From Myxococcales bacterium (GTDB lineage: Bacteria; Myxococcota_A; UBA9042; JABWCM01; BTVJ01): 64,000 nucleotides of DNA. This document shows, in pieces, positions 30,001 to 58,110 of this stretch. Under the pieces are notes generated by a model. That model saw only the letters and a program-made list of their open reading frames with translations, was not told the origin of the DNA and did not search any database. The stretch is taken from NCBI GenBank assembly GCA_045863395.1, contig BTVJ01000001.1, forward strand, positions 66,406-130,405, read 5' to 3'. Numbering within the stretch: the stretch's first letter is position 1; the number at the start of each line of letters is the position of its first letter. The position numbers were made by a program, and so were the translations under genes.

Positions 30001-30589
30001 AAGGATCGCCGTCGTCGCACGCCAGCCCATCCTTCATGGCTCCGGTCTGGCACGCGCCGTCCTCGCAGCTCGCGGTCTGACAGGAGATGCCCTCCACCAG
30101 ATAGGCACAGTCGTCATCCTTGGAGCACTCGCTGGCGCCGGCGTCGAGGTCACCCCCCGTGTCGCCCTGAATGACCGTAACCTTGATGGACGCCCGCCCG
30201 GCGGTCCCACCGACGGCCTCACCGGCGTCGTCCACCACCTCGACTGCGATGGTGTGCGCCCCGAGGGGCACCGCAGTGAAGGTGAACCCGTCCCCCTCGA
30301 AGATGCGGCCCTTCTCCTTGCCGTCCAGCGTCATGGTGAGAACGTTGCCGAACTCCGACAGCTCGATGCCTTCCACCTCCACCTTGACGACGATGTCGGC
30401 GTCGAAGCCCGGAGTCTCGATGACCGCGCCATCGGTGGGCGACGCGATGGTGAGGCGTAGCTCGGTGCCGCCAGCGTCCTTGGCTCCACCGAACCCGGAG
30501 AAGGGCGGGAGCTTGGATGCCTCCACGCACCCCAAGGCGAGGGGCACGAGCGCGGCCAGGAGCCACTGAACCGAGCGGGTCACCGTCAT
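27017..30589 (-). CDS. Giant secreted Myxococcus-type cysteine-rich repeat lipoprotein (1190 aa), with an N-terminal Ig-like domain and a ~160-aa C-terminal domain shared with four neighbouring genes.
   Basis: ATG 30589 with GGAGG 6 nt upstream. Lipobox LALGCVEAS. More than 25 CxDDGNPCTxDxC repeats. Block of [18 protein letters not shown]../CGNDFLDPGEECDDGN motifs. C-terminal domain contains ..[42 protein letters not shown]. Confidence 0.8.
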   Translation of the reverse strand: MTVTRSVQWLLAALVPLALGCVEASKLPPFSGFGGAKDAGGTELRLTIASPTDGAVIETPGFDADIVVKVEVEGIELSEFGNVLTMTLDGKEKGRIFEGDGFTFTAVPLGAHTIAVEVVDDAGEAVGGTAGRASIKVTVIQGDTGGDLDAGASECSKDDDCAYLVEGISCQTASCEDGACQTGAMKDGLACDDGDPCTIEDECDGGGCQGVQDDCEDDNPCTTDTCDKKKGCRNNPNTKACDDGDPCTLGDVCSQGACKGQGLLGCDDGDACTTDACDPGSGGCVSLPAVLDCDDDNECTDDACNPDDGTCAHVPAAGNCFDGNLCTDDACDPETGSCAFTPVALDCDDGSLCTNDGCDPLTGECTSALKPLFCNDGDGCTDVSCDPLTGGCLYTPVAIDCNDGDPCTTDACDPKTGGCLNTPIAVNCDDGNVCTKDTCDTGSPGGCKHEPNAGACDDADACTYNDVCAAGACKGTLINCGDGDPCTVDSCAGGSCLNEPTAGACDDGNACTENDSCAGGACVGTTKACDDGDVCTTDTCAPATGCKHTPNTLPCDDGDSCTTGDACKDGACLPKGVNTCDDKNPCTSDLCNALTGTCINQPVEGPCSDGDGCTEGDSCDSGACVPGSLKDCEDANPCTTDFCTGGGCGHSFNSAPCDDGDPCTANDKCAGGTCTPGAPLVCDDGDPCNGVEVCNIASGGCELDGPAPYCGDGTTDWACGEVCDDDNQDGGDGCSADCTSDESCGNDFLDPGEECDDGNKDPLDGCDADCKEESAECTVDGDCDDLSVCTGTEKCNAGACAKGTPLVCSDGIPCTQDGCNPQTGCTFTPNNASCTDGIACTLDTCDPVSGCVFSPTDAACNDGILCTADSCVQGFGCKHVADHGVCEDGNPCTANTCSTLSGCVSTAAAGGTPCDDGNPCTEGDGCNGTACKPGGPKACDDGIPCTLDSCGIGGQCLHAPQNAACDDGNPCTVDSCAEVAGCSHAPSSGVPCDDGDECTLDDSCEAGQCAGGTLNPSCSTTFCTVFGVKGATVDCSLRIARASEAEPVPTGLEFTLSYDTAALTLDNFYSRWCFGPNCFDVPATGAGSTSLQSGHSVSIAPTKIADWSGFGGVIIVNAGDPTSPLSTAWLDEQGEVVGNPVFLTVRFVLAADIDEGAPASVDLDVSVATDGIAQSLVADLIKGIIITWLL

Positions 30590-41354: not shown

Positions 41355-42007
41355 CGGGCGCCTCCCGTCACGATGACGCCAGCCTCGGTCCTCGCCGGGA
41401 CTGCCGCCGCGTCCTGATCCGCCGCCACCAGCGCCGTCGCCGTCACGACGACGGGGGAGGACGCCGGCGCCTCACCGGAGAGCCGGAACCGTGCGGTGGC
41501 CACGACCGCGTCACCCTCGACCGCGCCGCTCCGAAGGACGGCCTGCGTGATCGGCGTCGTCGGGCTCGTGAAGTGGGCGATGACCAGCGACCCCTTGCCA
41601 GCCCAGGCCTCCGGCTGGTCCGGGCTCTGGAGCACGCTGTGCCCCGTGCGCGCGACGACCGGCTCCTCGGCAGTCAAACGACGCTCGGCGGCTCCGGCAT
41701 CGAACAGCCCGATGAAGGTGGCGCGGGCGCTGTCATACCCGAGCGTGAGCTGGAGCGCGCGAGCGGCGACCGTGTCCGGCACCGCGGCGAGGCGCACCGG
41801 GCAGGACACCACGGCGCCGGCCGCACCGGAGAGCTGACAGATGGCGGCGCCGGACAGGGGCGCCACAGCCGCAGGGCTCGTAGGAACGACGGCCTCCGTG
41901 GCCGTCGCCTCCGTGGGCTTCTCAGGCGCCTTGGTGGTCTGCTGGGTCCCCTCGCAGCCCACGATGGTGACGCCGAACACGAGAGACAGTGCGATGAGCT
42001 TCTTCAT
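41351..42007 (-). CDS. Small lipoprotein (218 aa) made up only of the ~160-aa domain shared by the four giant proteins.
   Basis: ATG 42007 with GGGAGG 5 nt upstream. Lipobox VTIVGCEG, then a Thr/Ala/Pro linker. Domain signature ..CPVRLAAV..ARTGHSVLQSPDQPEAWAGKGSLVIAHFTSPTTPI..VIVTGGAR. Its stop overlaps the giant gene's start. Confidence 0.7.
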   Translation of the reverse strand: MKKLIALSLVFGVTIVGCEGTQQTTKAPEKPTEATATEAVVPTSPAAVAPLSGAAICQLSGAAGAVVSCPVRLAAVPDTVAARALQLTLGYDSARATFIGLFDAGAAERRLTAEEPVVARTGHSVLQSPDQPEAWAGKGSLVIAHFTSPTTPITQAVLRSGAVEGDAVVATARFRLSGEAPASSPVVVTATALVAADQDAAAVPARTEAGVIVTGGAR

Positions 42008-42035: not shown

Positions 42036-45000
42036 CTACTGCGCCCAGGTGACGATGATTGCGTTGATGATCTCGGAGACCAGGGTGGCTGCCTGCCCGT
42101 CCGCGCTTACCAGGTTGGTCAGCTCCACCTGGGCCGGGTTGCCGGCCGCGACGTCGCTGAGGAGCTTGAACTTGACGCGCACCATCTCGGGTTCGCCCTC
42201 GATGGCGCCCGCCTCGATGTACGCGTTGCTCAACGGCACGGTGGGATCTGACGTGTTGACGATGACCACCGCTCCGGATCCCTTCCAGTCCGCTACCTTC
42301 GTTGGCGCGATGGACACGGAGTGCCCCGTCGAGAGCGGCGTCGAGCCAGGCCCGGTGACGGGTGTCTCGAAGCACCCGAAGCCCGGGAAGCACAGCTCGT
42401 CATAGAAGTTGTCGAGCTGAAGGACGGTCTCGTCGTAGTCCACCGCGAACTCGATGCCCGTCGCGGGCGGATCCGCCTCGGTCTCGCGCGCAACGCGAAC
42501 CGAGCAGGTGACGATCTCGCCCGTCGATCCTGACAGGTCGCAGACGAAGCCCGGCGGGGCCCCGCACCCGGGGTGGGGACCACCCGCAACGCAGACGCCG
42601 TCCTGGCACTGGTCGTCTTGGGTGCAGGGGTTGCCGTCGCTGCACGGGAGCGCGCTCAGCGGGATGTGGTAGCACCCGTCCAAGGCATCACAGGCATCTG
42701 CGGTGCACGCATTGCCATCGTCACAGAGCTGGTTCTCTGCCAGGTTGACGCACGTCCCCTGTGCCGTGCAGGAGTCGACGGTGCAGGCGATGCCGTCGTC
42801 ACAGTTCACCAGTGGCCCTGCGGTGCATTTGACCCCGGCGCACGTGTCGTTGGTGGTGCAGGGGTTCCCGTCGTCGCACGCAGCGCCCGGCGCCTTCACA
42901 TACTGCTGGCAGCCCGCCACCAGGTCGCAGATGTCGTCGGTGCAGGAGTTCCCGTCGCTGCACGCCAGATCGTCCGGCACGAACACGCACCCAAGGACCG
43001 GGTCGCAGGTGTTGAGCGTGCAGGCGACCCCATCTGCGCAGTTCAACGACGTCCCGGGCTTGCAGCCGCCCGCCACGCACTTCTCGATGCCGGTGCAGAC
43101 GCTGCCGTCGTCGCAGTCCGCGTCGGTGGTGCAGTCGAGGCTCTCGACCAGGCACTCGGGGCTGCACCCATCGTTGGGCAGCTCGTTGCCGTCATCGCAG
43201 TCCTCCCCGGGATCGGTGAAGCCGTTGCCGCACTCCTCGTTGGACGTGCACGACGCGTTGCACCCGTCGTCGGAGAGCTCGTTGCCGTCGTCGCAGGCCT
43301 CACCGGGGTCCACAAAGCCGTTGCCACACTCCTCGTTGGAGGTACACGACGCGTTGCAGCCGTCGCCGGAGTCGTTGTTGCCGTCGTCGCACACCTCGCC
43401 GCACGCGAGGTCCTCGGTGCCGTCGCCGCAGTAGGGCGCGTCACCGGCCTGACAATAGAGACTGCCGGCGTCGCAGGTCTCCGCCCCATTGCAGGGGTCC
43501 CCGTCATCGCAGAGGGCCGCGGCCGCCGGGATGCACCGATCCGTGGGCGCTGACACGATGAGGCCGTCCTGTACCCAAGTGTGCAGCTCCGCGCCCGCCG
43601 TGCTCCAGGACGTGACGTTGTGCAGGTAGACGAACACGGGCGCCTCGACCGGGATGTCGATCTTCGTCGACATATGGAGGGTGAGGATCTCCGGGTCGCC
43701 CTGGACGGCGCCACCGGCGAGCCACGCCTCCGTCAGTGGCGACGCGGGGTCGCTGACGTTGGCCAGATGCACGTCCACGTTGCCGAGCCAGTTCGCGGGG
43801 CTCGCGGGCGTCAAGCTCGCGGTGTGCCCGCTCGGAGAGAGCTTGTTCGGCGGAACCGCCGCAGCGACGCAGCTCGCCCCGAAGCACACGGTGTCGGTCA
43901 TGCCCTGCATCTTGAGGCTGGCCGACTCGAACTGGAGCACGAAGTGGAGGGTGCCGGGCAGTGGCGTCCCATCATCGAAGCGGGCGTGCTTGATCGGACA
44001 GGTGATCGACGTGCCCGTCGGCCCCGCCACGGCGCACAGGGCCGCTGCGTCCAACGCACAGCTCGGGAGGAGGGCGCCGGGGGTACAGGCGCCAGCCGCG
44101 CACACGTCGCCCTGGGTGCAGGGGTCCTTGTCGTCGCAGGGCGCAGTGTTGAACGCGGTCGTGCACGCGCCGGTGACCGCGTCGCATGCGTCGTCGGTGC
44201 AGGGATCCCCGTCGTTGCAGACCTTGGCGACGCCGCCACACGCCCCGTCCTTGCACGTGTCCTGGGAGGTGCACGCGTTGCCGTCGTTGCAGGGGGCGGT
44301 GTTGGGCGTGTAGATGCATGCGCCGTTCGTCGGGTTGCATGCGTCGTTCGTGCAGGGGTTGCCGTCGTCGCAGGCGGTCGAGGTCCCGGGCGTGCACTCC
44401 CCTGCGGAGCAGACGTCGTCGGTCGTGCAGGGGTCGTGGTCATCGCAGGGGGCCGTGTTGGGCGCCGTGGTGCACCCCCCGGTCGCAGGATCGCAGGAGT
44501 CGTCCGTACACGGATCGTCGTCGTCGCACACCACGAGGGGCACCCCGAAGCACGCACCCGTTGCAGGGTCGCAGGCCTCATCGGTGCAGGCGTCGCCGTC
44601 GTCGCAGAGGACCGCCGCGAGGTGGGCGCACGCCCCGGTCGCAGGATCGCAGGCGTCCGTGGTGCACAGGTTGCCGTCGTCGCAGTTCAGGGTGATGGGC
44701 GTGTTGGAGCAGTTGCCCGTCGCCGGGTTGCACGAATCGGTGGTGCAGAGGCTTCCGTCGTCGCAGTCCTTCTCGGGACCGGCCGTGCAGACGCCGGCCT
44801 GGCACGCGTCCCCCACGGTGCAGCCGTCCCCGTCGTCGCAGGCCAGGCCCGCGGCCGCATCGCTGAGCACGCACTGCCCGCTCGACGGGTTGCACGCCAC
44901 GGTCTTGCAGGCGGGCGGCGCCGCGCAGTCGACGATGGTCGCCGTGTCGAGCACGCAGGAGCCATCCTGGCACTTCAGGGTCCCGTTGCAGAGGTTGCCG

Positions 45001-45815
45001 TCCTCCTTCGAGGCGCAGTCGGCCGTCGTGTTGCACTCCCCGCAGATATCGGGGCCCGCCTTGCAGGCGCCCCCCTGGCACTGGTCGGGCCCCGTGCAGG
45101 CGTCGCCGTCGTCGCAGGCCGCCACGTTGTTCGTGTAGACGCACCCCAGGTCCGGGTTGCAGGCGTCGTCAGTGCAGCCATTGTCGTCGTTGCAGGCCTT
45201 GGGTTTGCCAGCGACGCACGCGCCGGCGTCGCAGTGGTCGTCCTCGGTGCAGGCGTCGCCGTCGTCGCACACCGTGGTGGTGGGCTCGTTCACGACCCGG
45301 CAGGTGCCCTCGTCCTTGTCACAAGACGCGGTCTGGCAGGGCCCCGACGCCTTGCTCGCACAGTCCGCGTCGGTGGTGCACTCCGGCGCATCTGCCTTCT
45401 TCTTGACGACGACGGTCACCTCGTCGACGTAGTCGGCGCCGTCAAAGGGCACGCCCTCACTGCGCAGGGCCTGCACCCCAAGAGTGTGGGATCCGAGCGG
45501 GACGGCGGCGAAGGTGTAGGTGTGGCCCGTCGCCAGCGTGGCCACCTCGACGCCGTCAAGGGACAGCGACAGCAGGGGCCCTCCGTCGGCCAGCTCCAGC
45601 CCGAGCACCTGGAGCTCGGCGACGATGTCGACGGTGTCGGTGGTGGTCTCGAAGACCTCCCCCGCCGAGGGAGAGAGGAAGGAGACGGAGACGGTGCCAC
45701 CGCCTGCGTCGGCGTCACTCGTGGTCTGCACCACCGAGTCGTCCGAACAGGCGGCGAGCGCCAGCAGCGCGCTCGCCCAAGCCGACATCCATGTCATCCT
45801 CGCCCGACCGATCAT
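42036..45815 (-). CDS. Giant secreted Cys-rich repeat lipoprotein (1259 aa): Ig-like N-domain, Cys repeats, one internal and one terminal copy of the shared C-terminal domain.
   Basis: True start is ATG 45815 ([26 protein letters not shown]) with GGGAGG 7 nt upstream. The ORF-track extension to 45980 has no RBS. Contains a [18 protein letters not shown]../[16 protein letters not shown] block. Terminal domain ..[41 protein letters not shown]. Confidence 0.75.
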
Positions 45816-46196
45816 GCGGTTCCTCCCGTTGGTGGCCAGCCACTGGCCGTTGCAGAGCCCCTGATCGACCACCAACGGCCGCCCTGGTGCTCTGCGCCCG
45901 ACGCGACACACCAGCAAGCCGGACCCGGGACAACCCTCGCGGGACTGCCGGTCCTGGTCGTCGGGCGAACGGACGCTCAATGCCGATCCCTAGCTCTGTT
46001 CGACCCTCCCAGTCAACGCCAAACATCCACGCGGCCATCGGGGGGGGAGGACGCTGTCACCCGTCCGAGGGCATCGATGGCGCTCCGGACCGCGGCCCAA
46101 GCGCACTTCAGCGTCAGGGGAATCCGTTGAGGCCCCCCCTGGTTTGTGCTACGGTCCGCGACCCTGGGCGGGAGCAACGGAAGTGATCGAGGGTTC

Positions 46197-46796
46197 ATGA
46201 CGGAGCAAATCCCACCGCGAGGCCTCGTGACCCAGACGGCGCTGGTCGTCGTCCTCGGGGCGTTGGTCGGCCTGGGTGCCCACGCCGCCAGCGCTCCGGA
46301 CTTCGACGCGGCCCTGGCGCCTCCGGCCCAGGCAGACTCCTCAGAGATCGCCCGCCTGCGCGAGGAGACCCCACAGGCACCCACCAGCGACGCGGACGTG
46401 GCGCCGGAGCGTCCCCGAGTCGTCATCCCCAAGCGCGTCTCGTTCATCGACCTCAGGTCGCAGCTCTACGCCCAGCCAGGCGTGTCGATCATCGACGCCC
46501 GCGACCGATCATCCTACGAGGGCGGCCACATCCCCGGGTCGCTGCACCTGGACCTCGACGACCTGGAGCGCGACCCCAACGCCGGCGGCCCCGTGCTTGC
46601 CCAGGTACCCCGCACCGACGTCGTCGTGGTCTACTGCTCGGGCGGCGACTGCGACATCAGCATGCGCCTCGCACGGAAGCTGATCGCCCGGGGCTACGAC
46701 AAGGTCCTCGTGTACGAGGGCGGCTGGACGGAGTGGCTGCAGGAGGACGGGACCCGCGCGACCGGCGCTGAGCCGGGCACTCCGGACGGAGGCTGA
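46197..46796 (+). CDS. Membrane-anchored rhodanese-domain protein (sulfurtransferase-like).
   Basis: ATG 46197 with GAGGG upstream. One TM helix (ALVVVLGALVGLGAHAA). Rhodanese fold, with the VVVYCSGGDCDIS loop holding the candidate catalytic Cys, followed by LVYEGGWTEW. Confidence 0.7.
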   Translation: MTEQIPPRGLVTQTALVVVLGALVGLGAHAASAPDFDAALAPPAQADSSEIARLREETPQAPTSDADVAPERPRVVIPKRVSFIDLRSQLYAQPGVSIIDARDRSSYEGGHIPGSLHLDLDDLERDPNAGGPVLAQVPRTDVVVVYCSGGDCDISMRLARKLIARGYDKVLVYEGGWTEWLQEDGTRATGAEPGTPDGG

Positions 46797-46798
46797 CC

Positions 46799-47269
46799 AT
46801 GGCGTGGCTTCGTCACCCGGCGCTGCTCTGGGCGAGCAGGCTCCTGCTCGGCGCCGTCTTCCTCTACGCGGCCTGGTACAAGATCACCGACCTGCCGGGG
46901 TTCGCCGCCAACATCAACAACTACGGCATGGTGCCCATCGGGCTGCTCCCCCTGTTCGCCACGGTGCTCGCGGGCGTGGAGGTCGTGACCGGCCTCGCCC
47001 TCGTGACGGGGGTGTGGCGCAAGGGGGCGGCGCTCGTCGTGTCGGCGATGCTCCTGATGTTCATCGTCGCCATCGGCGTCGCTTACGCTCGCGGCAAGAG
47101 CATCGACTGCGGCTGCTTCACGGCCGAGATGAGCGCAGAGAAGGCCGGAGAGGTGCGCGCACACATGCTGCGCCGCATCGTGGAGGATGTCGGCATGCTC
47201 GCGCTGGGCCTCAACCTGTTCGTTCAGGACCTCACCTCCCCTCGGGTCCCGGAGCCATCCCTTGTCTGA
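46799..47269 (+). CDS. MauE/DoxX-family redox-associated membrane protein.
   Basis: 156 aa with 4 predicted TM helices. The CGCF motif (SIDCGCFTAE) is typical of the MauE family. This family is commonly adjacent to rhodanese genes, from established knowledge. Confidence 0.7.
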   Translation: MAWLRHPALLWASRLLLGAVFLYAAWYKITDLPGFAANINNYGMVPIGLLPLFATVLAGVEVVTGLALVTGVWRKGAALVVSAMLLMFIVAIGVAYARGKSIDCGCFTAEMSAEKAGEVRAHMLRRIVEDVGMLALGLNLFVQDLTSPRVPEPSLV

Positions 47270-47483
47270 CGACACCCTGCTCGAGCTGCTGGTCACCCCA
47301 CACACCCACGAGCGCCTCCGCCCGGGCACCCCCGCGGAGCTGCGCCAGGCCCAAGGGATGTGGGCAGAGCGCTCCCCGGAGCCCCTCCCGGCCATCCTCG
47401 TCACTGCGGATGGGTCCCGGGCCTGGCCGATCCTCGACGGCATCCCGGACCTCCTCTCCGAGCACGCCCTCACCCTGCGCTGA
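47262..47483 (+). CDS. Trm112-like (DUF343) small protein, Cys-less variant.
   Basis: TTG 47262 with GGAG 7 nt upstream. Overlaps the MauE 3' end by 8 nt. Pattern LLELLVTPHTHERL....AWPILDGIPDLLSEHA resembles Trm112/YcaR (LLEILxCP....YPIxDGIPxLL) with the Zn-Cys residues replaced. Confidence 0.45.
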   Translation: MSDDTLLELLVTPHTHERLRPGTPAELRQAQGMWAERSPEPLPAILVTADGSRAWPILDGIPDLLSEHALTLR

Positions 47484-47493
47484 GTCCGCCCCA

Positions 47494-50400
47494 ATGAACA
47501 GCCCGGCCGACCTCGGAGGGGGGATCCGCATCCGCGGCGCCCGCCAGCACAACCTGCGCGACGTGGACGTGGACATCCCGCTCGGCCGAATCACCGTCGT
47601 GACGGGCCCGAGCGGGTCCGGGAAGTCGTCGCTGGCCTTCGACACGCTCTACGCGGAGGGGCAGCGGCGCTACGTGGAGTCGTTCAGCGCCTACGCGCGC
47701 CAGTTCATGGATCGTATGGACCGCCCCGACGTGGACGCCGTCGACGGGGTGCTGCCGGCGGTGGCCATCGACCAGACCAACGCGATTCGGTCGTCCCGGT
47801 CCACCGTGGGCACCGTCACCGAGATCGCCGACCACGTGAAGGGGCTCTACGCCAGGGCCGGGCAGCTCCACTGCGGGACTTGTGGCCTGCCCGTTCGCAG
47901 CGAGGACCCGCCGGCGGTGCTCGCGGATCTGTTGGCCAGGGCCGAGGGGCGGCGCGCCGTGGTCACGTTCCCGCTCGACGTCAGCGGCAAGGCGGCAGGC
48001 GCGGCGGCGGAGTGGCTCGTCGCGGAGGGGTTCGGGCGCCTGTGGGACGGGCGGGTGGTCGAGGTGGCCGACGCGGGGCTCCACAAGCGCAAGAAGGGCG
48101 CGCCGCCCATCGAGGTGCTGGTGGACCGGGTGGTGCTCCGGGCGGACGACGAGGCGCGGGCCCGCATCGCGGACAGCATCGAGACCGCCATGTCCCGTGG
48201 CCGGGGGCGCGTCATCGTACACGTGGAGCAGGGCGAGGGCTTCGAGGCGCGGGCCTACAGCCGCGGGCGCCACTGTGCCCGCTGCGACGTCGCCTGGCCG
48301 GACCCGGTGGAGAACCACTTCTCGTTCAACTCGCCGCTCGGCGCCTGCCCGGCGTGCAACGGCTTCGGGCGCATCATCGCCCTCGACCTGGACCTGGCCA
48401 TCCCCGACCACGGCCAGACGCTGGCCGGCGGCGCGATCCGGCCCTGGACCACCGACTCCACCGAGGCCGAGCGGCGCGCGCTGGCGCGCTTCTGCGAAAA
48501 GGTCGGCATCCCCCTGGACGTGCCGTGGCGGGACCTGGACGACGACCAGCGGCGCCTGGTGGTCGACGGATCGAGGCCGCATCGGTTCCCCGGAGTGCGA
48601 GGCTGGTTCAAGTGGCTCGAGGGCAAAACCTACAAGATGCACGTGCGGGTGTTCCTGGCGCGTTATCGGGCGTATGTTCCCTGCGGGACCTGCTCAGGCG
48701 CGCGTTTTCAGCCCCATGCGCTCCTCTATCGCCTCGGAGGGCTCACCCTCGCGCAGCTCTACGCCCTCGATCTGGAGCACGCGCGGGCCTTCTTCGACGC
48801 CCTCGAGCTGACACGGGAGCAGGCAGAGGCGGTGGCCGGCCTGCTCCGGGAGGTGCGCTCGCGGCTCCGCTACTTGGTGGAGGTGGGCCTCGGGTACCTG
48901 ACCCTCGACCGGCAGTCGCGCACGCTGTCCGGCGGCGAGGTGCAGCGGGTCAACCTGACGACGGCGATCGGGAGCCACCTGGTCAACACCCTCTACGTCC
49001 TCGACGAGCCCTCCATCGGGCTGCACCCGCGGGACAACGACCGGCTGATGGGGATCCTGGAGCGCCTGCGGGCCAACCGGAACACCATCGTGGTCGTCGA
49101 GCACGACGAGGCGATCATCATGCGGGCCGACCACGTCATCGACATGGGGCCCGGAGCGGGAGACGGCGGGGGACGCGTGGTCTACGAGGGGTCGCCGGCG
49201 GGCCTGCTCGGCGCCAGCTCTCTGACGGCCCGCTTCCTGAGCGACGGCGGACGGTCAGCGCCCCGAGCGCCCCGCCCCGGCACCGGGCACATCCGCATCC
49301 GGGGCGCCCGAGAGAACAACCTGCGCTCGCTGGACGTGGACATCCCGCTTGGGGCGCTGACGGTCGTGGCCGGGGTCAGCGGCTCGGGCAAGAGCACGCT
49401 CGTCGAGGACGTGCTCCACCGGGGCCTGCTCCGGCAGCGGGGGGAGCCCGTCGAGGCGCCAGGTGCCCACGACGCGATCACGGGGGCCGACGGGCTCACC
49501 GCGGTGGTGCTCGTCGACCAGCGCCCCGTGGGCACGACGCCGCGGGCCAACCCGGCGACCTACGTCAAGGCGTGGAGCGCCATCCGGGAGCTGTTCGCCG
49601 CGCTGCCGGAGTCCGCGCGCCTCGGCTTCACGGGCGGGACGTTCTCGTTCAACACGGCCGGGGGGCGCTGCGACGGCTGCGAGGGCACGGGCTTCGAGCG
49701 CATCGAGATGCAGTTCCTCTCCGACGTGTTCGTGACCTGCGAGCAGTGCGGCGGGCGCCGCTTCAAAGAAGAGGTCCTCTCGGTGCGGCTCCGGGGGCGC
49801 TCCGTCGCCGACGTGCTCGACCTGACCGTCTCGGAGGCAGTGCAGTTCTTCCGGACCGAGGTCGCCGCGCGCCGCCCCCTGGAGGTGCTGGCCCAGGTCG
49901 GCCTCGACTACCTCCGCCTCGGGCAGCCTCTCAGCACGCTCTCCGGCGGGGAGGCGCAGCGCCTGAAGCTGGCCGGGCACCTCGGGGCTCGCGGCAGCAC
50001 CGGGGCGCTGGTGCTGCTGGACGAGCCGACCACGGGCCTCCACGTGTCCGACGTGCGGGTGCTCATCGACAACCTCCACCGCCTGGTCGACCAGGGCAAC
50101 ACGGTGGTGGTCATCGAGCACCACCTGGACGTCATCGCAGCGGCGGACCACGTCATCGATCTCGGACCGGAAGGGGGGACCAGTGGGGGCGGCCTGGTGG
50201 TCGCCGGACCTCCCGAGGTGATCGCGGCCCATGAGGGGAGCCACACAGCGCGGTTCCTGCGCGCGCACCTGGGGCGGGCGGGGCTCCCCCTCGGGGTGGC
50301 GGAGGCGCCGACCGCATCGCTGCTCGCCCCGGACGACATCGAGATCCGGGGCGCCCGCGTCCACAACCTCAAGAACCTCTCCCTCCGCATACCCCGGGAC

Positions 50401-52818
50401 CGGCTGGTGGTGATCACGGGCCCCAGCGGCTCCGGCAAGTCGTCGCTGGCCTTCGACCTGCTCTTCGCCGAGGGCCAGCGGCGGTTCGTGGACTGCCTCT
50501 CCCCATATGCGCGCCAGTACGTGCAGCAGCTCGCGCGGCCCGACCTGGACGAGCTCCTCGGCGTGCCGCCCACGGTCAGCATTGCCCAGCGCACGACCCA
50601 GTCCGGCCGCCGCTCGACGGTGGCGACCATCACCGAGATCTGGCACTACCTCCGGCTGCTCTGGGCGCGCCTCGGCGTGCAGCACTGCCACCGCTGCGGT
50701 GCCAAGGCGTCGGGGCTCGGCGCCGACGAGGTCCTTGCGCGCGTGATGGCCCGGCACGAGGGCAAGGATGTACGGCTGCTCGCCCCGGTGGTGCGGGGAC
50801 GCAAGGGTTTCCACAAGGACGTCATGGAGCGGGCGCGAGCGCAGGGCTTCCAGGAGCTGCGCATCGACGGCCGCCTGGTGGCCATCGGGGACGCGAAGCC
50901 CCTGGAGCGGTTCAAGGAGCACGACGTGGAGGTGGTGGTGGCCCGCTGGACCGTCGGGGCGCGACCCGCGGCTCGGGACTTCGTGGCACAGGCCCTGGAG
51001 CTGGGCAACGGCACCATCGCGGTGATGGAGGTCGAGACGAAGCGTCCTCGCACGTACAGTCGCGAGAGGTGGTGCGAAAGCTGCGAGATCGGCTTCGATC
51101 CGCCAGATCCCCGTACATTCAGCTTCAACACATCCGAGGGCGCCTGCCCCGCCTGCGACGGCACCGGAGAGGAGGGCTCCCCGGACGACGACGCCCCCCC
51201 CGGCCTCCCCTGCGCGGAGTGCGGGGGCGCGCGCCTCAAGCCCACAGCCCGGGCCGTGCGCTTCGCAGGCCGCGGCATCGCTGAAGTGGCCGCGTTGACC
51301 CCCGGGGGCCTCCTCGAGCTGCTGTCGGACTTGACGCTCACGGACCGGGAGCAGGCCATCGCCGGCCCGGCCCTGGCGGAGGTCGCCTCCCGGTGCCTGT
51401 TCCTGGAGCGGGTCGGCCTCACCTACCTGACGCTGGATCGGGGCGGGCATACGCTTTCCGGGGGCGAGGCGCAGCGGATCCGCCTTGCGAGCCAGCTCGG
51501 GGCCCAGCTCTCCGGGGTGCTCTACATCCTCGACGAGCCGACCATCGGCCTCCACCCGAGCGACAACGATCTGCTGCTCGACGCGCTGGCCGACCTGCAG
51601 CGGCGGGGCAACGGGGTCGTGATCGTCGAGCACGACGAGGCGACCATCCGCCGGGCGGCGCACATCATCGACATGGGGCCCGGGGGCGGGCTGCTGGGCG
51701 GGCACGTCACGGCCCAAGGGACGCTCGCCGACATCCTCGCCAGCGAGGCGTCCGTCACAGGGCGGTCCTTGCGCCTCGGGGCGGCGCGCTCGGTCAGGGT
51801 CCCGCGCCCTTGTCCATCCGACGGCGCGCGCATCGGCGTCAGGGGCTTCAGCCACCACAACCTCGGGAGCGTGGACGCAGACTTCCCGCTCGGGCGCCTC
51901 ACGGTCGTCACGGGAGTGAGCGGCTCGGGCAAGTCGAGCCTGGTGCGCGACGGGCTCGCGCGGTCGGTGGCCGCCGCCCTGCGAGGGGAGGAGCCGCCTG
52001 CGCGGTTGAGCGGGATCGAGGCCATCGCTGCGCTGCGCGAGATTGATCAAGCGCCCATCGGAAAGACGCCGCGCAGCATCCCCGCGACCTACGTCGGGTT
52101 CTATACCGCGATCCGGGAGCTCTTCGCGGGGCTGCCCGAGGCGCGGATGCGCGGCTTCACCGCGGCCCGCTTCAGCTTCAACACCAAGGGCGGGCGCTGC
52201 GAGCACTGCGCGGGCCAGGGCCAGGTGAAGCACGAGATGAGCTTCCTGCCGGACGTCTGGGTCACCTGCGAGGTGTGTGGTGGGCGGCGCTTCGACGAGG
52301 AGACCCTGCGCGTGCGCTACCGCGACCGCACGATCCACGACGTGCTCGCCATGACCGTCGATGAGGCGGCTGCGCTCTTCGAGCCCGTGCGGCGGGTGCG
52401 CGCCCCCTTGGCCCTGCTCTCGGACGTGGGCCTCGGATACCTGCACCTGGGGCAGGCGAGCAATGCGCTGTCCGGTGGCGAGGCACAGCGGGTGAAGCTC
52501 GTCGAGGAGCTCGCCCGGCGGGGCACGGGGAGCACCCTCTACGTCATGGACGAGCCGAGCACGGGCCTGCACCTGGACGACCTCGGGAGGCTCCTGACGG
52601 TGCTGCACCGGCTGGTGGACCGGGGGGACACGGTCGTGGTCATCGAGCACGACCTGGACGTCATCGCGGCCGCCGACTGGGTGATCGACCTGGGGCCGGG
52701 AGGAGGCGCCGACGGAGGGCGTGTCGTGTTCCAGGGGCCCCGGGAGGAGCTCGTCCGGTGCGGCGCGAGCAGGACGGCGCCGTATCTGCGCGCACACCTG
52801 CTGTCGGGCGCAGCGTAA
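47494..52818 (+). CDS. uvrA: Tandem-duplicated UvrA-like ABC ATPase: two complete UvrA units fused in one 1774-aa polypeptide.
   Basis: Four Walker-A/UvrA N-blocks: [50 protein letters not shown] (aa ~10); [37 protein letters not shown] (~600); [50 protein letters not shown] (~950); [37 protein letters not shown] (~1450). Four LSGGE signature motifs and CxxC zinc modules are also present. The frame is continuous from ATG 47494. The ORF-track start 46804 is an out-of-frame extension. Confidence 0.85.
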
Positions 52819-52974
52819 CCGTCGCCCGAACCGCCCGGAATAACGCGCCTTGCTGCGCATGTCTTGACTTTTCCGGCCACTGGGCGACCATTCGCGTTCT
52901 GTGCCTCGCTCTGGACTTCCTGCCAGACGTCAGGCGGGGGTCGCAGCCATCAACCCGACATCGGAGGTGTCGCC

Positions 52975-53505
<531 letters not shown>

Positions 53506-53544: not shown

Positions 53545-54030
53545 TCACTCGGAGGACTGCTGCACCGCCTTCAGGTATCCCTCCGTCGCTGCTGCGGCCT
53601 GCTTGACCTTCCAGTTCCTGCTGACGACCAGGACGGAGACCAGGACGCCGACGAGCACGAGGCCCAGCACCGCGTGGACGATCTTGTACCTGGCGCCGCC
53701 CTCCTTGCGGGGCTCGTCGCGGAGCGAGCCCATGAACCGCTGCATGACGAGCTGGGCCGCGATGCCGACGACGACGAGCGTCAGCTTCATGTGGAAGCCA
53801 GGGTTCTTCAGGAGCGCGGGGTCGTCGATCAGCATCCATGTGCCCGTCCCGAGCGCGAGCACGAGCCCCGGCAGCAGCGCGCCGAAGTAGAGGCGCCGCT
53901 CGATGGCGGAGAGGCGCGTCTGGACCGCCAGCTCCTCCTTGACGTGGTAGCCGAGCATGCGAGAGAGGATCAGCAGGCTGCCCATCCAGAAGATGACGCC
54001 GAGCAGGTGGACGACGAGGAGCCAGTTCAT
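53545..54030 (-). CDS. HemJ/CopD-family (UPF0093) membrane protein, putative protoporphyrinogen IX oxidase HemJ.
   Basis: ATG 54030 with GGAG 6 nt upstream. 161 aa. N-terminal signature MNWLLVVHLLGVIFWMGSLLILSRMLGYHV resembles the HemJ family N-terminal pattern (roughly M.W.KA.H.....W.AGLFYL.RLFVYH, from memory). Three or four TM helices. The remainder of ORF-track entry 53545..56829 is antisense junk. Confidence 0.65.
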   Translation of the reverse strand: MNWLLVVHLLGVIFWMGSLLILSRMLGYHVKEELAVQTRLSAIERRLYFGALLPGLVLALGTGTWMLIDDPALLKNPGFHMKLTLVVVGIAAQLVMQRFMGSLRDEPRKEGGARYKIVHAVLGLVLVGVLVSVLVVSRNWKVKQAAAATEGYLKAVQQSSE

Positions 54031-54190
54031 GGGTTCTCCGGGGTTCGACGGGGTCAAGCGGCCCGCGGGGGCGCCGGTCAGCGAGGGTCGGACTATATGC
54101 CAGGCCACCCCGTCGCGCCAATGTACCGTCCGGCCTGGATGATCGGCGCGGCGGGAGCTACCCTGGCGCTCGGAGCCACACGGAGGGATC

Positions 54191-55375
54191 ATGAGAGGAC
54201 TTCGACTCCTTGGCTGCGTCACGGTGGCCGCGCTGGTCGGTTCGGCGCAGGCCGCTCGGGGCGACGCGAGGGCGCTCAAGAAGGACCTGGATGCCCTTGG
54301 AGCATGCGCCGAGGCGACCATCGAGGCCTGCCCCGCCCTCGCCCGGCTGGTCGAGGCAGGCGACGTGGCCGTCCCCGCACTGGCCGGGCGCCTCGTCGTG
54401 GGCGACGACGCGGCGCGGGTCAGCGCGGTCAAGGCGCTCGGATTCATCGGGAGCGAGGCGGCGACAGATGCGCTCCTCGCAGCTCTCCGGGAGCGCAGGG
54501 TCAGCACGGACGTGCTCGTCATCGTCGCGGAGACCCTCGGGAGGTCAGGAGCCGCGTCGGCCGTCGAGCCGCTCGTGGCGCTCCTGGCCTCGGACGAGCC
54601 GCGTGACAAGCTGGCGGCCATCACCGCAATGTTGATGCTGCGGGCGGCGGCGACCGTGGAGCCTCTGATCCATACCCTGTCCCACCACAACCCGAACGTA
54701 CAGGTGTCAGCGGCGACCGCCCTCGGGGTCATCGGTGACCCGACCGCCGCGGCCCCGCTCACAGAGCTGCTGGGCGCTCCCACGGTGTGGCCGGTCCGGG
54801 TGGCCGTGGTGGAGGCGCTCGGCCGCATCGGAGAGCCGTGGACCGCCGGGGCCGTCGAGCCGATGCTCGCACACCCCCGCCCCGAGGTTCGCCGAGCCGC
54901 GGCACTTGGGCTCGGGGAACTCGGAGCCACGTGGGCAGGTCCAGCCCTCGTTCGGGCAGTGTCGGACCCGGACACCGTAGGAGAGGCAGCCATAGCGGTC
55001 GGCAAGCTGGGGGTCCGGGAGGCGGTACCGATGCTGGTGCGAGCGGCGCGCGAGCCGCTGACCGACGAGGCGCAGGCGCAGGTGATGGCTGCCATTGGTG
55101 GCCTCGGGAGCGCGGAGGTGCTGCCCGACCTGGAGCCGCTCATCCAGAGCCGCCACGAGCGGCTGGTCGTCCTGACGGCAGAGGCGATGGGCCGCATCGG
55201 GCACCCGGACGCCGCCGACGCCCTGGTCTCGCTGCTGGACTCGCGGGAGAAGGGCACCCGGGAGATCGCCGTCTGGGCGCTGGAGCAGGTCACCGGAGAG
55301 CTCCTCGGGCAGGACGCCGCCGCGTGGAGACGCTGGCTCGCCGAGCGTGACGCGCGCCGCGAGGGCACCCCGTGA
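54191..55375 (+). CDS. Secreted HEAT-repeat (PBS-lyase-like) protein.
   Basis: Signal MRGLRLLGCVTVAALVGSAQA. Repeated ..VR..A..ALG.IG...A...L units. GGAGGG upstream of the ATG. Confidence 0.7.
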   Translation: MRGLRLLGCVTVAALVGSAQAARGDARALKKDLDALGACAEATIEACPALARLVEAGDVAVPALAGRLVVGDDAARVSAVKALGFIGSEAATDALLAALRERRVSTDVLVIVAETLGRSGAASAVEPLVALLASDEPRDKLAAITAMLMLRAAATVEPLIHTLSHHNPNVQVSAATALGVIGDPTAAAPLTELLGAPTVWPVRVAVVEALGRIGEPWTAGAVEPMLAHPRPEVRRAAALGLGELGATWAGPALVRAVSDPDTVGEAAIAVGKLGVREAVPMLVRAAREPLTDEAQAQVMAAIGGLGSAEVLPDLEPLIQSRHERLVVLTAEAMGRIGHPDAADALVSLLDSREKGTREIAVWALEQVTGELLGQDAAAWRRWLAERDARREGTP

Positions 55376-55686
55376 TCGGGAGGCTGCTGATCTGCGCGAC
55401 CTTGCTGCTCATGACACAGGTCGGGTGCAGAGACGACGGAGCTCCCGGCGCGTGCCGTCAGGTCATCGACGCCTGGTGCGGGCGCTTTGCGTCGTGCTTC
55501 GAAGAGGCGGACAGGGAGGGGTGCAACACGATGGCGGCCGCCAGCATGGGCGAGCACGGGTGCGCGGCAGCCAGCGCCGTGCGCGATCCGGGGGAGGTCG
55601 CGGAGTGCCGCGCCGCCGTGGAGGCCTTGACGTGCGACTCCCTGCGCTCGATGCCGTCCGTGTGCGGCGGGTTGTTCCTCCACTGA
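55372..55686 (+). CDS. Small secreted Cys-rich protein.
   Basis: GTG 55372 overlaps the upstream stop (GTGA). Signal-like N-terminus MIGRLLICATLLLMTQVGC. 8 Cys in 104 aa. Confidence 0.45.
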   Translation: MIGRLLICATLLLMTQVGCRDDGAPGACRQVIDAWCGRFASCFEEADREGCNTMAAASMGEHGCAAASAVRDPGEVAECRAAVEALTCDSLRSMPSVCGGLFLH

Positions 55687-55857
55687 CGTCGCCCAGGTGG
55701 TGAGCACCCTGCCCGGCGTGCAGACACAACGGCCTGACTTTGGGGGTTTACGGGCCGGGCGCTTTCTGATAAGTAGAGCGGGCTCGGCGCCGCTGGCGCG
55801 GAGCGGGCGAACTTTTGCCAACGATTTCATCAACTTACCCACCCGAGAGACAGGCTC

Positions 55858-58110
55858 ATGGATGTGATCCTCGGCGCGGCGGTGCTCGTCTTTGCGGCGG
55901 CAACGCTGTACCTGTGGTTTCGTGCGGCGGAGCGTGGCCAGGAGCTGGACAAGCTCCGGGCGGCGGAGAGCGAGGCGCGGCGGGAGCTGACCACCGCGCA
56001 GAAGAAGCTCGACGACCAGCAGAAGAAGTACGGTCAGGCCGCCGACGAGCTGGCCAAGGCGCAGCAGCAGTACAAGGAGACCAAGCAACAGCTTCACCAG
56101 TCCAAGGAGGAGCTGCAGAAGCGCAAGCCTGCCGAGAAGGAGGCCAAGAAGCGCCGAAGTCCGGGCGTTGAGGCAGACGCCCTGCACGACCGTGAGGAGC
56201 TGCGGCGCGCCCACGGCGAGCTGGAGGAGCTCGCGCGGGAGCTGGATCTCACCAGGAAAGAGCTGCGAGAGGCGAGAGCCGAGGCGGAAGAAGCGGAGCG
56301 GCGGGCGGACGAGGCCCAGCGCACGGCGACGGCCCCTGAGACGATCATCGCGCAGGCAGCCGACGGCTCGGGCGTCTCTGAGGAGCAGGTCCGCGAGGCC
56401 GTGGCCCGGGCGCGCCGGGAGGCGACGGACGCCGTCCGCGAGCGTATGCAGGGCGACATCGAGAACCTGAAGAGCCGCATCGAGCGCCTGAAGCGGGAGG
56501 TCGTGGACCGGGAGATGGAGCTCCGCCGCCTGCGCCGCAAGTCCGAGCTGACGGAGCGGGCCTACGGCATCACCGAGGGCCAGCTCGAGATGGCCCATGA
56601 CCGCATCTTCTTCCTTGAGAAGGGGCGCCACCGCCGCCCGCATCGCGCGGAGGCCATGGCCGCTGCCGAGCTCCCAATGACCGGCAACGAGGACGAGACG
56701 TCTCCCATCGCGCCCGCTCAGCTCGACCAGTGGGAGCGCGAGGCCGAGGCCGAGGCCGAGGCGCGCGAGGCGCAGGCGCGCGCCGAGACAGAGGCGGCGG
56801 TGCGCGCTGCGGACGAGAGGGCGGCACACCAGGCCAAGAAGGAGACGCGGCGAAAGGCGACAGAGAAGCCGTCACCGGCCGTCGCAGCGATGAGAGACGA
56901 GCACGCAGAGGAGCTGCGCGAGTCGGCCGAGCGTGCCGCCGAAGAGGATGCGGCGACGGCTCAGGCGCCGCTCGAGACGACAGCCGACCAGGTCGCGCCT
57001 GAGCCTTACCGTGCGACACAGGACGACACTGCGGCAGGCATCGAGCTCGTCCGCGAGGCCGAGGCAGAGGAGCTGGCCCACGCCGGAGCCATCGCCGCGG
57101 AGGAGCTCGCGGGCGGAACGGACCAGGGAGCAGAGGAACCACCAGCGGCAGTGTCAGTGACGCCGTTCACCGGCGAACCCACGGACGAGGCGACGGCGCC
57201 GAGTGCGCTGGAGCCATCCGCGGGCGAGGCCCAGGTGTCTGCGGAAGACCTGGCTCGGGAGGCGGAGGCGGAAGAGCTCGCCGCGTTCGAGGCTATCGCC
57301 TCCGAGGAAGGCGCCGCAGGAACCGAGCCCGTGGCGGCGCAGGCCCTGGAGGCGGAGGAGGCCGCGCAGCGCGAGGCCGAGGAGGCCGCACAGCGCGAGG
57401 CCGAGGAGGCCGCACAGCGCGAGGCCGAGGAGGCCGCGCAGCGCGAGGCCGAGCAGGCTGCGCAGCGCGAGGCCGAGCAGGCTGCGCAGCGCGAGGCCGA
57501 GGAGGCTGCACAGCGCGAGGCCGAGCAGGCTGCGCAGCGCGAGGCCGAGCAGGCTGCGCAGCGCGAGGCCGAGGAGGCTGCACAGCGCGAGGCCGAGCAG
57601 GCCGCGCAGCGCGAGGCCGAGCAGGCCGCGCAGCGCGAAGCCGAGCAAGCCGCGCAGCGCGAGGCCGCAGCAAGCGAGGCCGCAGAAGCCGCAGCACGCG
57701 AGGCCGCAGAGCGCCAGGCCGCAGAGCGCCAGGCCGCAGAGCGCCAGGCCGCAGAGCGCGAGGCCGCAGAGCGCCAGGCCGCGGCACGCGAGGCCGCAGA
57801 GCGCGAGGCCGCAGAGCGCCAGGCCGCAGAGCGCGAGGCCGCGGAGCGCCAGGCCGCAGAGCGCCAGGCCGCAGAGCGCCAGGCCGCAGAGCGCGAGGCG
57901 GCACAGACCGCGGCCCGCGAAGCCTCGGAGCGCAGGGCGGCCGAAGAGCGAGCCAAGCGTGAGGCCGCAGACGCAGCGCGGGCTGCGTCCGTCGCAGCGA
58001 GTACACCTCCGCCCGCGAGCCCCGCAGCAGCACTGACCGATGACGAGCAGCGCGCCCGGCGCGAGGCACTACGGCGCAAACTGTTTGGCCTTGGCGGTGA
58101 CCAGAAGTGA
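55858..58110 (+). CDS. N-terminally membrane-anchored coiled-coil protein with Glu/Ala/Gln/Arg tandem repeats.
   Basis: TM helix [19 protein letters not shown]. Long heptad-like KEL/REA segments. About 13 copies of AAQREAEE(Q) and about 14 copies of AAERQ(E). The Gln-codon-rich sense frame is plausible. The antisense is Arg/Ser-rich junk. Confidence 0.7.
57361..57672 (+). repeat. Near-perfect 24-bp in-frame tandem repeat, about 13 copies (gccgc[ag]cagcgcgaggccgag[gc]ag).
   Basis: Read directly: units begin at 57361, 57385, 57409 ... 57649, differing by 1-3 nt. Confidence 0.9.
57700..57905 (+). repeat. 15-bp in-frame tandem repeat, about 14 copies (gccgcagagcgc[cg]ag).
   Basis: Read directly. 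Encodes [10 protein letters not shown] units. Confidence 0.85.

Follow-up and report, generated by a model that had tools for sequence, protein, structure and literature searches.

Canonical (class I) UvrA, which acts in nucleotide excision repair (NER), forms head-to-head dimers with four ATPase sites, in which two insertion domains clamp the DNA. Homodimers of this class from E. coli, G. stearothermophilus (Bst; structures 2r6f and 3uwx), T. maritima (3pih), M. tuberculosis (3zqj) and C. thermocellum (9gx series) were used here for comparison. Class II UvrA (D. radiodurans UvrA2, 2vf7; DrrC; Ecm16, 7sh1), which shares the ATP-binding cassette (ABC) core, zinc (Zn) modules and insertion domain with the protein described below, has neither a UvrB-binding domain nor the first Zn module (PMC9328131, PMC3167621) and acts independently of UvrB and UvrC (PMC9328131). 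A fused form is also on record, the chlamydial UvrA (NF001885/PRK00635, 1,809 positions), likewise a two-unit protein of ~1,800 amino acid (aa) residues named excinuclease ABC subunit A. The older NER literature has a category, class III, for duplicated UvrA. In the open-access literature that we searched, class I and class II (IIa/IIb) UvrAs are described, and neither a natural fused UvrA nor an internal asymmetry in one was found to be reported. Here we describe a fused uvrA gene in a 64,000-nucleotide (nt) stretch of a Myxococcales metagenome-assembled genome (MAG; contig BTVJ01000001.1, positions 66,406 to 130,405), hereafter the window, of which the product consists of two diverged UvrA units that carry conserved and complementary substitutions. 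The internal asymmetry may be new, while the fusion itself is already catalogued and automatically annotated.

The gene and the domains of its product are as follows, all on the + strand:

47494..52818, +: fused uvrA-uvrA open reading frame (ORF), 1,774 aa and a TGA stop, third-position GC 0.89, with NCBIfam matches
47524..50271, +: UvrA unit 1, complete class I layout (aa 11-926), matching Bst UvrA 2r6f from end to end (E 1.5e-255)
47605..47628, +: Walker A of the first nucleotide-binding domain (NBD-I) of unit 1, GPSGSGKS, with K44 at E. coli K37
47866..48294, +: UvrB-binding domain of unit 1 (aa 125-267), Pfam UvrA_inter (PF17760) 44.6 bits, cut-off 23.3
48385..48666, +: insertion (DNA-binding) domain of unit 1 (aa 298-391), cut to 94 aa, Pfam UvrA_DNA-bind (PF17755) 49.7 bits
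49372..49395, +: Walker A of unit 1 NBD-II, GVSGSGKS, with K633 at E. coli K646
49522..49953, +: signature domain II of unit 1 with Zn3 (aa 677-820), with a degenerate DNA-contact patch
50272..50337, +: inter-unit tether (aa 927-948, 22 aa), rich in Ala, Pro and Gly, its sequence unconserved
50338..52794, +: UvrA unit 2, class I layout without the insertion domain (aa 949-1767)
50419..50442, +: Walker A of unit 2 NBD-I, GPSGSGKS, with K982
50680..51093, +: UvrB-binding-type domain of unit 2 (aa 1063-1200), Pfam UvrA_inter 83.2 bits
51178..51204, +: nine-residue bridge in place of the unit 2 insertion domain (aa 1229-1237), 7 of 112 insertion-domain positions aligned
51913..51936, +: Walker A of unit 2 NBD-II, GVSGSGKS, with K1480
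52051..52482, +: signature domain II of unit 2 with Zn3 (aa 1520-1663), retaining R1541, R1551, R1553, R1559 and P1586

The fused uvrA is a real gene that encodes two diverged UvrA units in one chain. Its frame is open over 1,774 codons to the TGA stop, as an earlier note on this DNA had stated from the sequence alone, and its third-position GC is like that of the other real genes of this ~70% GC window. The ATG at 47494 is the likely start, because it lies 10 nt past the stop of a small upstream ORF and position 6 of the UvrA profile is matched by residue 11 of the product. The same frame stays open for another 230 codons upstream (46804-47493, +), across a MauE gene and the small ORF, which use other frames; this stretch is a typical high-GC shadow frame and makes a mechanical ORF list give an ORF of 2,004 aa. 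An identical protein has already been recorded as AMXMBFR64_00740 on a 426,642-bp contig of a Myxococcales MAG, with the source annotation 'hypothetical protein'. The whole protein scores 2,043.7 bits with the NCBIfam UvrA model NF001503 (cut-off 1,147) and 1,971.2 bits with TIGR00630, and the single units reach 987 and 990 bits with the latter, both above its cut-off of 729.8.

Like class I UvrA, each unit has two ABC NBDs, three Zn modules and a UvrB-binding-type domain, with 42-50% identity to the solved class I UvrAs and fold matches at template modelling (TM) scores of 0.82-0.84. Chance resemblance is excluded by the E values of each half against solved UvrA structures (~1e-233 to 1e-255). 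The single-chain double UvrA with four ABC ATPase domains proposed in the earlier note was thus confirmed, with four intact sites and six Zn modules. The four N-blocks that it had recognised lie at aa 11, 600, 949 and 1447 (nt 47524, 49291, 50338 and 51832; repeat family D1), and the second unit, placed there at about nt 50340, starts at aa 949, that is nt 50338. Walker A motifs (GxSGSGKS) are found at aa 38, 627, 976 and 1474, LSGGE signatures at aa 478, 816, 1321 and 1659, Walker B motifs at aa 503, 842, 1346 and 1685, and H-loops at aa 535, 874, 1378 and 1717, together with the Q-loops and the Cys pairs of all three Zn modules (Zn1, Zn2 and the Zn3 hairpin) in both units. The Walker A lysines equivalent to E. 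coli K37 and K646 are invariant in both units of all 198 fused relatives aligned. The wedge residues Y60/F64, the role of which has been described (PMC12796330), are Y/F and Y/Y in the two units.

The two units differ in their domain content. Bst UvrA 2r6f served as the ruler, with domain limits that we take to be those of its structure paper. The earlier note had proposed to score each half against UvrA for the UvrB-binding and insertion domains; in the alignment the UvrB-binding domain was present in both halves and the insertion domain in half 1, while it was absent from half 2. In unit 1, the UvrB-binding domain is trimmed, the RKG..H segment being gone, and retains R182, D211, R212, R224, S228 and E230, which correspond to E. 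coli R176, D205, R206, R216, S220 and E222, respectively. The insertion domain of this unit matches positions 1-65 of the 110-position profile and covers 91 of 112 Bst positions, and its signature domain II has A708, L710 and T716 at E. coli R722, R724 and R730, and S743 at P757. In unit 2, the UvrB-binding-type domain keeps EHDVEV and has A1159 and A1165 at E. coli R216 and E222. No match to Pfam UvrA_DNA-bind was obtained in unit 2, which aligns with C. thermocellum UvrA 9gxk in two blocks that skip chain residues 310-425, and both CxxC pairs of its Zn2 are retained on the flanks of the nine-residue bridge. AlphaFold models were made of each unit separately. Unit 1 gave a mean predicted local distance difference test score (pLDDT) of 88.4 and a predicted TM score (pTM) of 0.83, with pLDDT of 85-96 in the UvrB-binding domain, where the helix 219-235 bears R224 and E230, and of 86-97 in the insertion domain; its best fold match is 3uwx_A, the UvrA from the UvrA-UvrB complex (TM 0.84). 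Unit 2 gave a mean pLDDT of 91.0 and a pTM of 0.88, with a dip to ~68 only at the bridge. Each unit is thus predicted to fold.

Both units of the 198 fused relatives were aligned with E. coli and Bst UvrA. R216 and E222 of E. coli UvrA form the experimentally defined UvrB/Mfd interaction surface, and R712, R722, R724 and R730 are DNA-binding arginines that have been tested experimentally (PMC3025350). Unit 1 has R216 in 197 and E222 in 185 of the 198 relatives, R722 and R724 are variable in it, and R730 is kept in none, with T, H, S or Y in its place throughout. In unit 2, R216 and E222 are lost, with no conservation across the R216-E222 helix, and R712, R722, R724 and R730 are present in 198, 188, 182 and 196 of the 198 relatives, respectively. 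Complementary substitutions between the two units are therefore conserved in the fused family, and the window protein fits the descriptive group NBIC+NB-C, in which unit 1 has R216/E222 without R730 and unit 2 the reverse.

Widening the scan to the full set of 579 positions at which E. coli and Bst UvrA agree extended this pattern. Within the UvrB-binding domain, R176 (which we take to be a UvrB contact), D205, R216, S220 and E222 are kept by unit 1 alone. Unit 2 alone keeps K159, G160, R178 and H198, these four in at least 93% of the 198 relatives. Unit 2 alone also keeps R496 and Q500 of signature I and S699, G706, R730, P757 and T775 of signature II. Realigned independently and more accurately, the UvrB-binding domain showed the same asymmetry, with a unit 1 consensus of 'DR' and a helix R..dSlEqA, and a unit 2 consensus of LAP.VrgRKGfH, aRiDG and L.RY.EHdId. 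Each unit is strongly conserved in its own class, with hundreds of invariant columns as evidence of purifying selection, indicating a division of labour under selection and not decay. In nearest-neighbour comparisons unit 1s group with unit 1s and unit 2s with unit 2s, including those of the proteins with two full units (full + full), which indicates that the fusion and the asymmetry are older than the loss of the insertion domain. In a wider, divergent set of fused UvrAs, contacts in unit 1 with R730 in unit 2 was the commonest pattern (25 representatives), followed by the mirror image, still complementary, in which unit 2 has the UvrB contacts and unit 1 has R730 (n=10), and by symmetric proteins (n=9).

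The expected activity of the fused protein would be that of class I UvrA, ATP-dependent damage sensing and UvrB loading. Unlike the symmetric homodimer of ~940-aa chains, it is one chain of 1,774 aa with non-identical units at a fixed 1:1 ratio, so that asymmetry is possible: the UvrB/Mfd contacts are in unit 1 only, the full set of signature II arginines is in unit 2 only, and unit 2 is without the insertion domain. Unit 2 thus resembles a natural combination of the E. coli deletion 290-400 with R216A/E222A, and unit 1 a natural, partial version of the R712A/R722A/R724A/R730A mutant, all of which have been engineered (PMC3025350). In the engineered homodimers the defect is in both protomers and function is impaired or lost (PMC3025350), whereas in the fused UvrA the defect is in one unit and complemented by the other. 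Over the junction, too, the fused protein runs collinear with the chlamydial model NF001885, its aa 387-1066 matching profile positions 389-1059, but its score of 1,161.5 bits is far under the cut-off of 3,054, and it is therefore not the chlamydial equivalog. It is not a class II UvrA either, because both units have the UvrB-binding domain and Zn1.

Assemblies of both UvrA2-UvrB1 and UvrA2-UvrB2 have been solved and are represented by M. tuberculosis 9ga3 and 9ga4 and C. thermocellum 9gy7, with 9ga3 as an A2B1 form; the stoichiometry of UvrA and UvrB is debated (PMC7835731), and the two UvrA-UvrB interfaces have a trans geometry (PMC12796330). We propose that the two units have split their tasks in the time since an old duplication and fusion, and that they would fold back on each other through a flexible tether of ~25-30 residues to form an intramolecular head-to-head 'dimer'; between fixed reference points, the linker is at least 26 aa long, with a median of 30, in 199 fused proteins. 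Unit 1 would retain the insertion (DNA-clamping) domain and the UvrB/Mfd contact surface, and unit 2 the canonical signature II arginine patch for DNA contact. The UvrB-binding domain of unit 1 and signature domain II of unit 2 would then make up one intact combination, the reciprocal pair being degenerate in both elements. One intact and one doubly degenerate site suggest a single productive UvrB-loading site (A-A':B1). The proposed intact site would be one of the two symmetric UvrB positions of UvrA-UvrB complexes; both sites are chemically equivalent in the canonical complexes, whereas in the fused UvrA the asymmetry appears to be hard-wired in the sequence. The single-chain protein would thereby serve as an ATP-driven damage sensor that passes DNA to UvrB in UvrABC repair. 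The loss of one insertion domain is plausible in this scheme, because E. coli UvrA without residues 290-400 in both protomers still supports repair, with poorer damage discrimination (PMC3025350).

We assign a probability of about 0.6 to the reading that the fused UvrA is a single-chain, pseudo-heterodimeric damage sensor of NER, possibly with one productive UvrB-loading site. Its parts differ in strength. That the protein works with UvrB in NER is quite probable, and the intramolecular pseudo-dimer is probable. The odds that the fused protein is the only UvrA of the cell are about even, and a single UvrB site per molecule can be put forward only tentatively, at slightly below even odds. The widest claim, a hard-wired asymmetric UvrA with one UvrB/Mfd surface, one full signature II patch and, here, one insertion domain, by which NER proceeds with a single UvrB in hundreds of lineages, is a possibility that we regard with some doubt.

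Several observations weigh against this reading. The assignment of UvrB binding to unit 1, which rests on two tested residues and three co-conserved ones, has to be set beside the higher Pfam score of the UvrB-binding domain in unit 2 (83.2 versus 44.6 bits) and the strict conservation in unit 2 of the motifs RKG..H, RIDG and EH.ID, which unit 1 has lost, and which means that the UvrB-binding-type domain of unit 2 is under selection for something. The more divergent fused UvrAs show mixed residue patterns, in alignments that are less secure. With NF001503 the single units score 1,022.7 and 1,027.5 bits, each just under the equivalog cut-off of 1,147, which the whole protein exceeds because the scores of the two units sum. 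In a partner and synteny search by tblastn, with E. coli UvrB, E. coli UvrC and the window neighbours against all relative loci, no fused uvrA had uvrB or uvrC beside it. The window itself likewise contains neither of them, and mfd is found neither there nor next to a relative, so the partners are assumed. A Myxococcus-type LexA box, with what we presume to be its consensus, was matched once, far from the fused uvrA and at chance level, and a sigma-70-like promoter for the gene was not found; nor was an intrinsic terminator.

Some of these points would suit an accessory paralogue, in which case a canonical 940-aa uvrA would carry out the bulk of NER and the fused protein would be specialised, with or without UvrB, for example for certain lesions only, for transcription-coupled repair or for a task under a particular stress. 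We regard this as unlikely, although it has evidence on its side. UvrA paralogues are common in bacteria (PMC9328131), each unit here falls under the NF001503 equivalog cut-off, and signature domains I and II and the Zn3 region carry conserved substitutions specific to the lineage in both units; the gene is, moreover, co-oriented with rhodanese and MauE/DoxX genes and not with repair genes, and a stand-alone protein of 965 aa with unit-1-type residues (P0252) demonstrates that diverged units of this type are not always fused. However, the known non-NER paralogues, which are of class II, have lost the UvrB-binding domain, and both units here keep one; the tested contact residues are almost invariant in unit 1, the ATPase sites, Zn modules and wedge residues are all intact, and the losses are complementary, as expected if the two halves jointly supply one full set of UvrA functions. 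In Chlamydiae, a fused UvrA is the only UvrA known. A separate canonical uvrA was looked for in the 64-kb window and in the DNA that flanks the related loci covered here, and none was seen. A self-resistance or drug-displacement ATPase like DrrC or Ecm16, removing intercalators independently of UvrB and UvrC, is very improbable. UvrA-like proteins do have such a role in antibiotic producers, and fusions of ~1,600 aa without the UvrB-binding domain exist in the databases (25 representatives of the architecture N-IC+N-IC). Nevertheless, Zn1 and the UvrB-binding domain, which class IIa proteins are without, are present in both units, and unit 1 scores 853 bits with 2r6f versus 603 with DrUvrA2 and 514 with Ecm16. 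There are also no biosynthetic genes nearby in the window, and many of the lineages, such as Desulfobacterales and Parasutterella, are not known as producers. The drug or intercalator resistance, or other role outside canonical NER, that the earlier note had entertained is accordingly not favoured, given the UvrB-binding domains of both units, the contact residues kept in unit 1 and the housekeeping context beside infC.

The source of the sequence, a MAG in which the product is annotated as a 'hypothetical protein', also raises the possibility of an artefact, that is, two adjacent uvrA-like genes or a tandem duplication, collapsed or expanded, misjoined during assembly, or a frameshifted pseudogene. 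This is effectively refuted. The units are only 42-52% identical as proteins, and their best shared DNA blocks are 57-174 nt long with 60-87% identity; sharing only such short motif blocks, they would not have misled the assembler, and the duplication must be old. The junction is in frame and codon bias is uniform across the gene. The same fusion recurs in hundreds of independent assemblies, among them an isolate genome and complete chromosomes, without a stop and with tethers that measure at least 26 aa, and a relative of 80% identity, which comes from a different sample, shares both the fusion and its neighbours. Strong purifying selection acts on both units as well. We thus retain the single-chain, pseudo-heterodimeric NER sensor as the preferred reading.

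The earlier note had called a fusion of the UvrA dimer rare and, with low confidence, restricted to a few lineages such as Streptomyces-like genomes, and neither statement withstood the searches. The best 120 matches among 5.8 billion proteins are all 1,766-1,964 aa long and all have two UvrA units; the named ones mostly go by 'excinuclease ABC subunit UvrA' and belong to Myxococcales, Binatia, Planctomycetota, Eisenbacteria, Tectimicrobiota and others. With peptides specific to the window protein, 509 stretches encoding relatives were located in 185,579 species-representative genomes, the best 80 of which all span residues ~1-1770. Desulfobacterales supply most of these relatives, among them that of the isolate Desulfatitalea alkaliphila, and further ones come from Parasutterella/Sutterellaceae, Burkholderiales, Steroidobacteraceae, Eisenbacteria and Myxococcales; the best match among the species-representative genomes is 60% identical. 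The fusion is thus found in Myxococcota, Desulfobacterales, Binatia, Planctomycetota and Burkholderiales, for example. The description of a Streptomyces-like, non-NER protein fits the class II UvrAs and the duplicated class II-like proteins of ~1,600 aa.

An exhaustive search of 1.84 billion cluster representatives (50% identity) gave 10,344 UvrA-like matches at E < 1e-30, of which nearly all of the top 150 have two units. The commonest architecture among the representatives is a full unit followed by an insertion-less unit (44, and a further 9 truncated), followed by full + full (30) and by proteins with both units devoid of the UvrB-binding domain (N-IC+N-IC, ~1,600 aa; the 25 mentioned above), in addition to mixed forms. 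The insertion domain of unit 2 is deleted in 15 of the 120 best protein matches and in all 79 extracted genome-derived relatives. Five other representatives of ~1,800 aa, considered as chlamydial-type relatives, all scored below the NF001885 cut-off. A single origin of all fused UvrAs was considered and rejected, as a neighbour-joining tree of 238 units is without one clean split of unit 1 from unit 2 across families; more than one fusion event is therefore likely. The class II-type fused proteins form separate clades (for example P0209, P0214, P0217, P0226 and P0250). The family of the window protein clearly has one origin.

Two short proteins were met in this survey. P0246, at first a candidate for an unfused intermediate, is a fusion cut off at a contig end. 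P0252 (L084: 6001-8898; 965 aa), on a contig of 6.45 Mb, is a genuine stand-alone UvrA with unit-1-type residues, in which R216 is kept, E222 is a conservative D, R730 has become D and P757 has become A. The genes beside it include none of the unit 2 type. P0252 may represent a diverged paralogue, or else a relative of unit 1 that is unfused or was split secondarily.

The fused uvrA is flanked in the window by the following genes, those upstream being tightly spaced on the same strand:

46146-46796, +: rhodanese (Pfam)
46799-47269, +: MauE/DoxX (Pfam)
~47263-47483 (also 47187-47483), +: small unassigned ORF between MauE/DoxX and uvrA
52864..53505, +: infC, translation initiation factor IF-3 (Pfam IF3_N and IF3_C), 46 nt downstream of uvrA

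Of the rhodanese, MauE and Trm112-like trio that the earlier note had described upstream, the first two have Pfam matches, while the Trm112-like assignment has no Pfam support, the small ORF remaining without a Pfam match at a threshold as loose as E 0.1. This ORF is probably real and conserved, since an ORF of 79 aa is present at the equivalent site in the closest relative (L086: 7747-7986). The relative P0002 (80% identity; Myxococcota JABWCM01, from a different sample) has the same fusion, the same neighbours and infC downstream, and the gene order is shared only with P0002 and not with more distant relatives. The wider neighbours include repeat proteins and DabA.

Two proteins of 1,190 and 1,314 aa (27017-30589, -; 42036-45980, -) are rich in Cys-rich CTDC repeats of the Dictyostelium type. 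DUF4215 and cohesin-like matches were obtained in one of the two as well, and next to it lies a cohesin-domain protein (41351-42007, -); the same pair of repeat protein and cohesin is found upstream of uvrA at the locus of the 80%-identical relative (L086). A probable inorganic-carbon transporter subunit of the DabA type (18246-21173, +; 777 bits) is followed downstream by a Proton_antipo_M membrane protein (22491-23924, +), which could be its DabB partner. Kazal-type serine protease inhibitor domains, uncommon in bacteria, are present in a 664-aa protein (14574-16568, -). On the other side of infC, an ORF of 1,094 aa (53545-56829, -) matches UPF0093 only in its C-terminal part (aa 934-1068), and its long N-terminal part, with no family assigned, extends toward a repeat-rich region. 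This region holds a tandem array at 57349-57903, in which the 24-nt unit GAGGCCGAGCAGGCCGCGCAGCGC is repeated 13.5 times with 94% match, encoding EAEQAAQR on the + strand, followed by units of 30 and 45 nt. The array accounts for the AT skew of +0.53 in the 56-58 kb bin, and the two ORFs that overlap it (55858-58110, +; 57154-57648, -) match no Pfam family.

How the four ATPase sites, two insertion domains and two UvrB-binding domains of the UvrA dimer are used is still debated, and a mutation in a homodimer hits both protomers, whereas a diverged single-chain UvrA shows which features are needed in just one copy. The value of the present gene therefore lies in its asymmetry and not in its existence, as the fusion is neither rare nor newly discovered. 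For annotation, proteins of ~1,770-1,900 aa of this kind are real fused UvrAs and not mis-assemblies or 'hypothetical proteins', and they fall into at least three architectures, full + full, full + insertion-less and class II + class II, only the last of which resembles the drug-resistance type. A single-chain UvrA would permit a site-specific dissection of the sensor, as each of its four ATPase sites could be mutated separately. If the proposed reading is true and the fused protein is the sole UvrA of the cell, a second UvrB site, a second insertion domain and a symmetric dimer would all prove dispensable.

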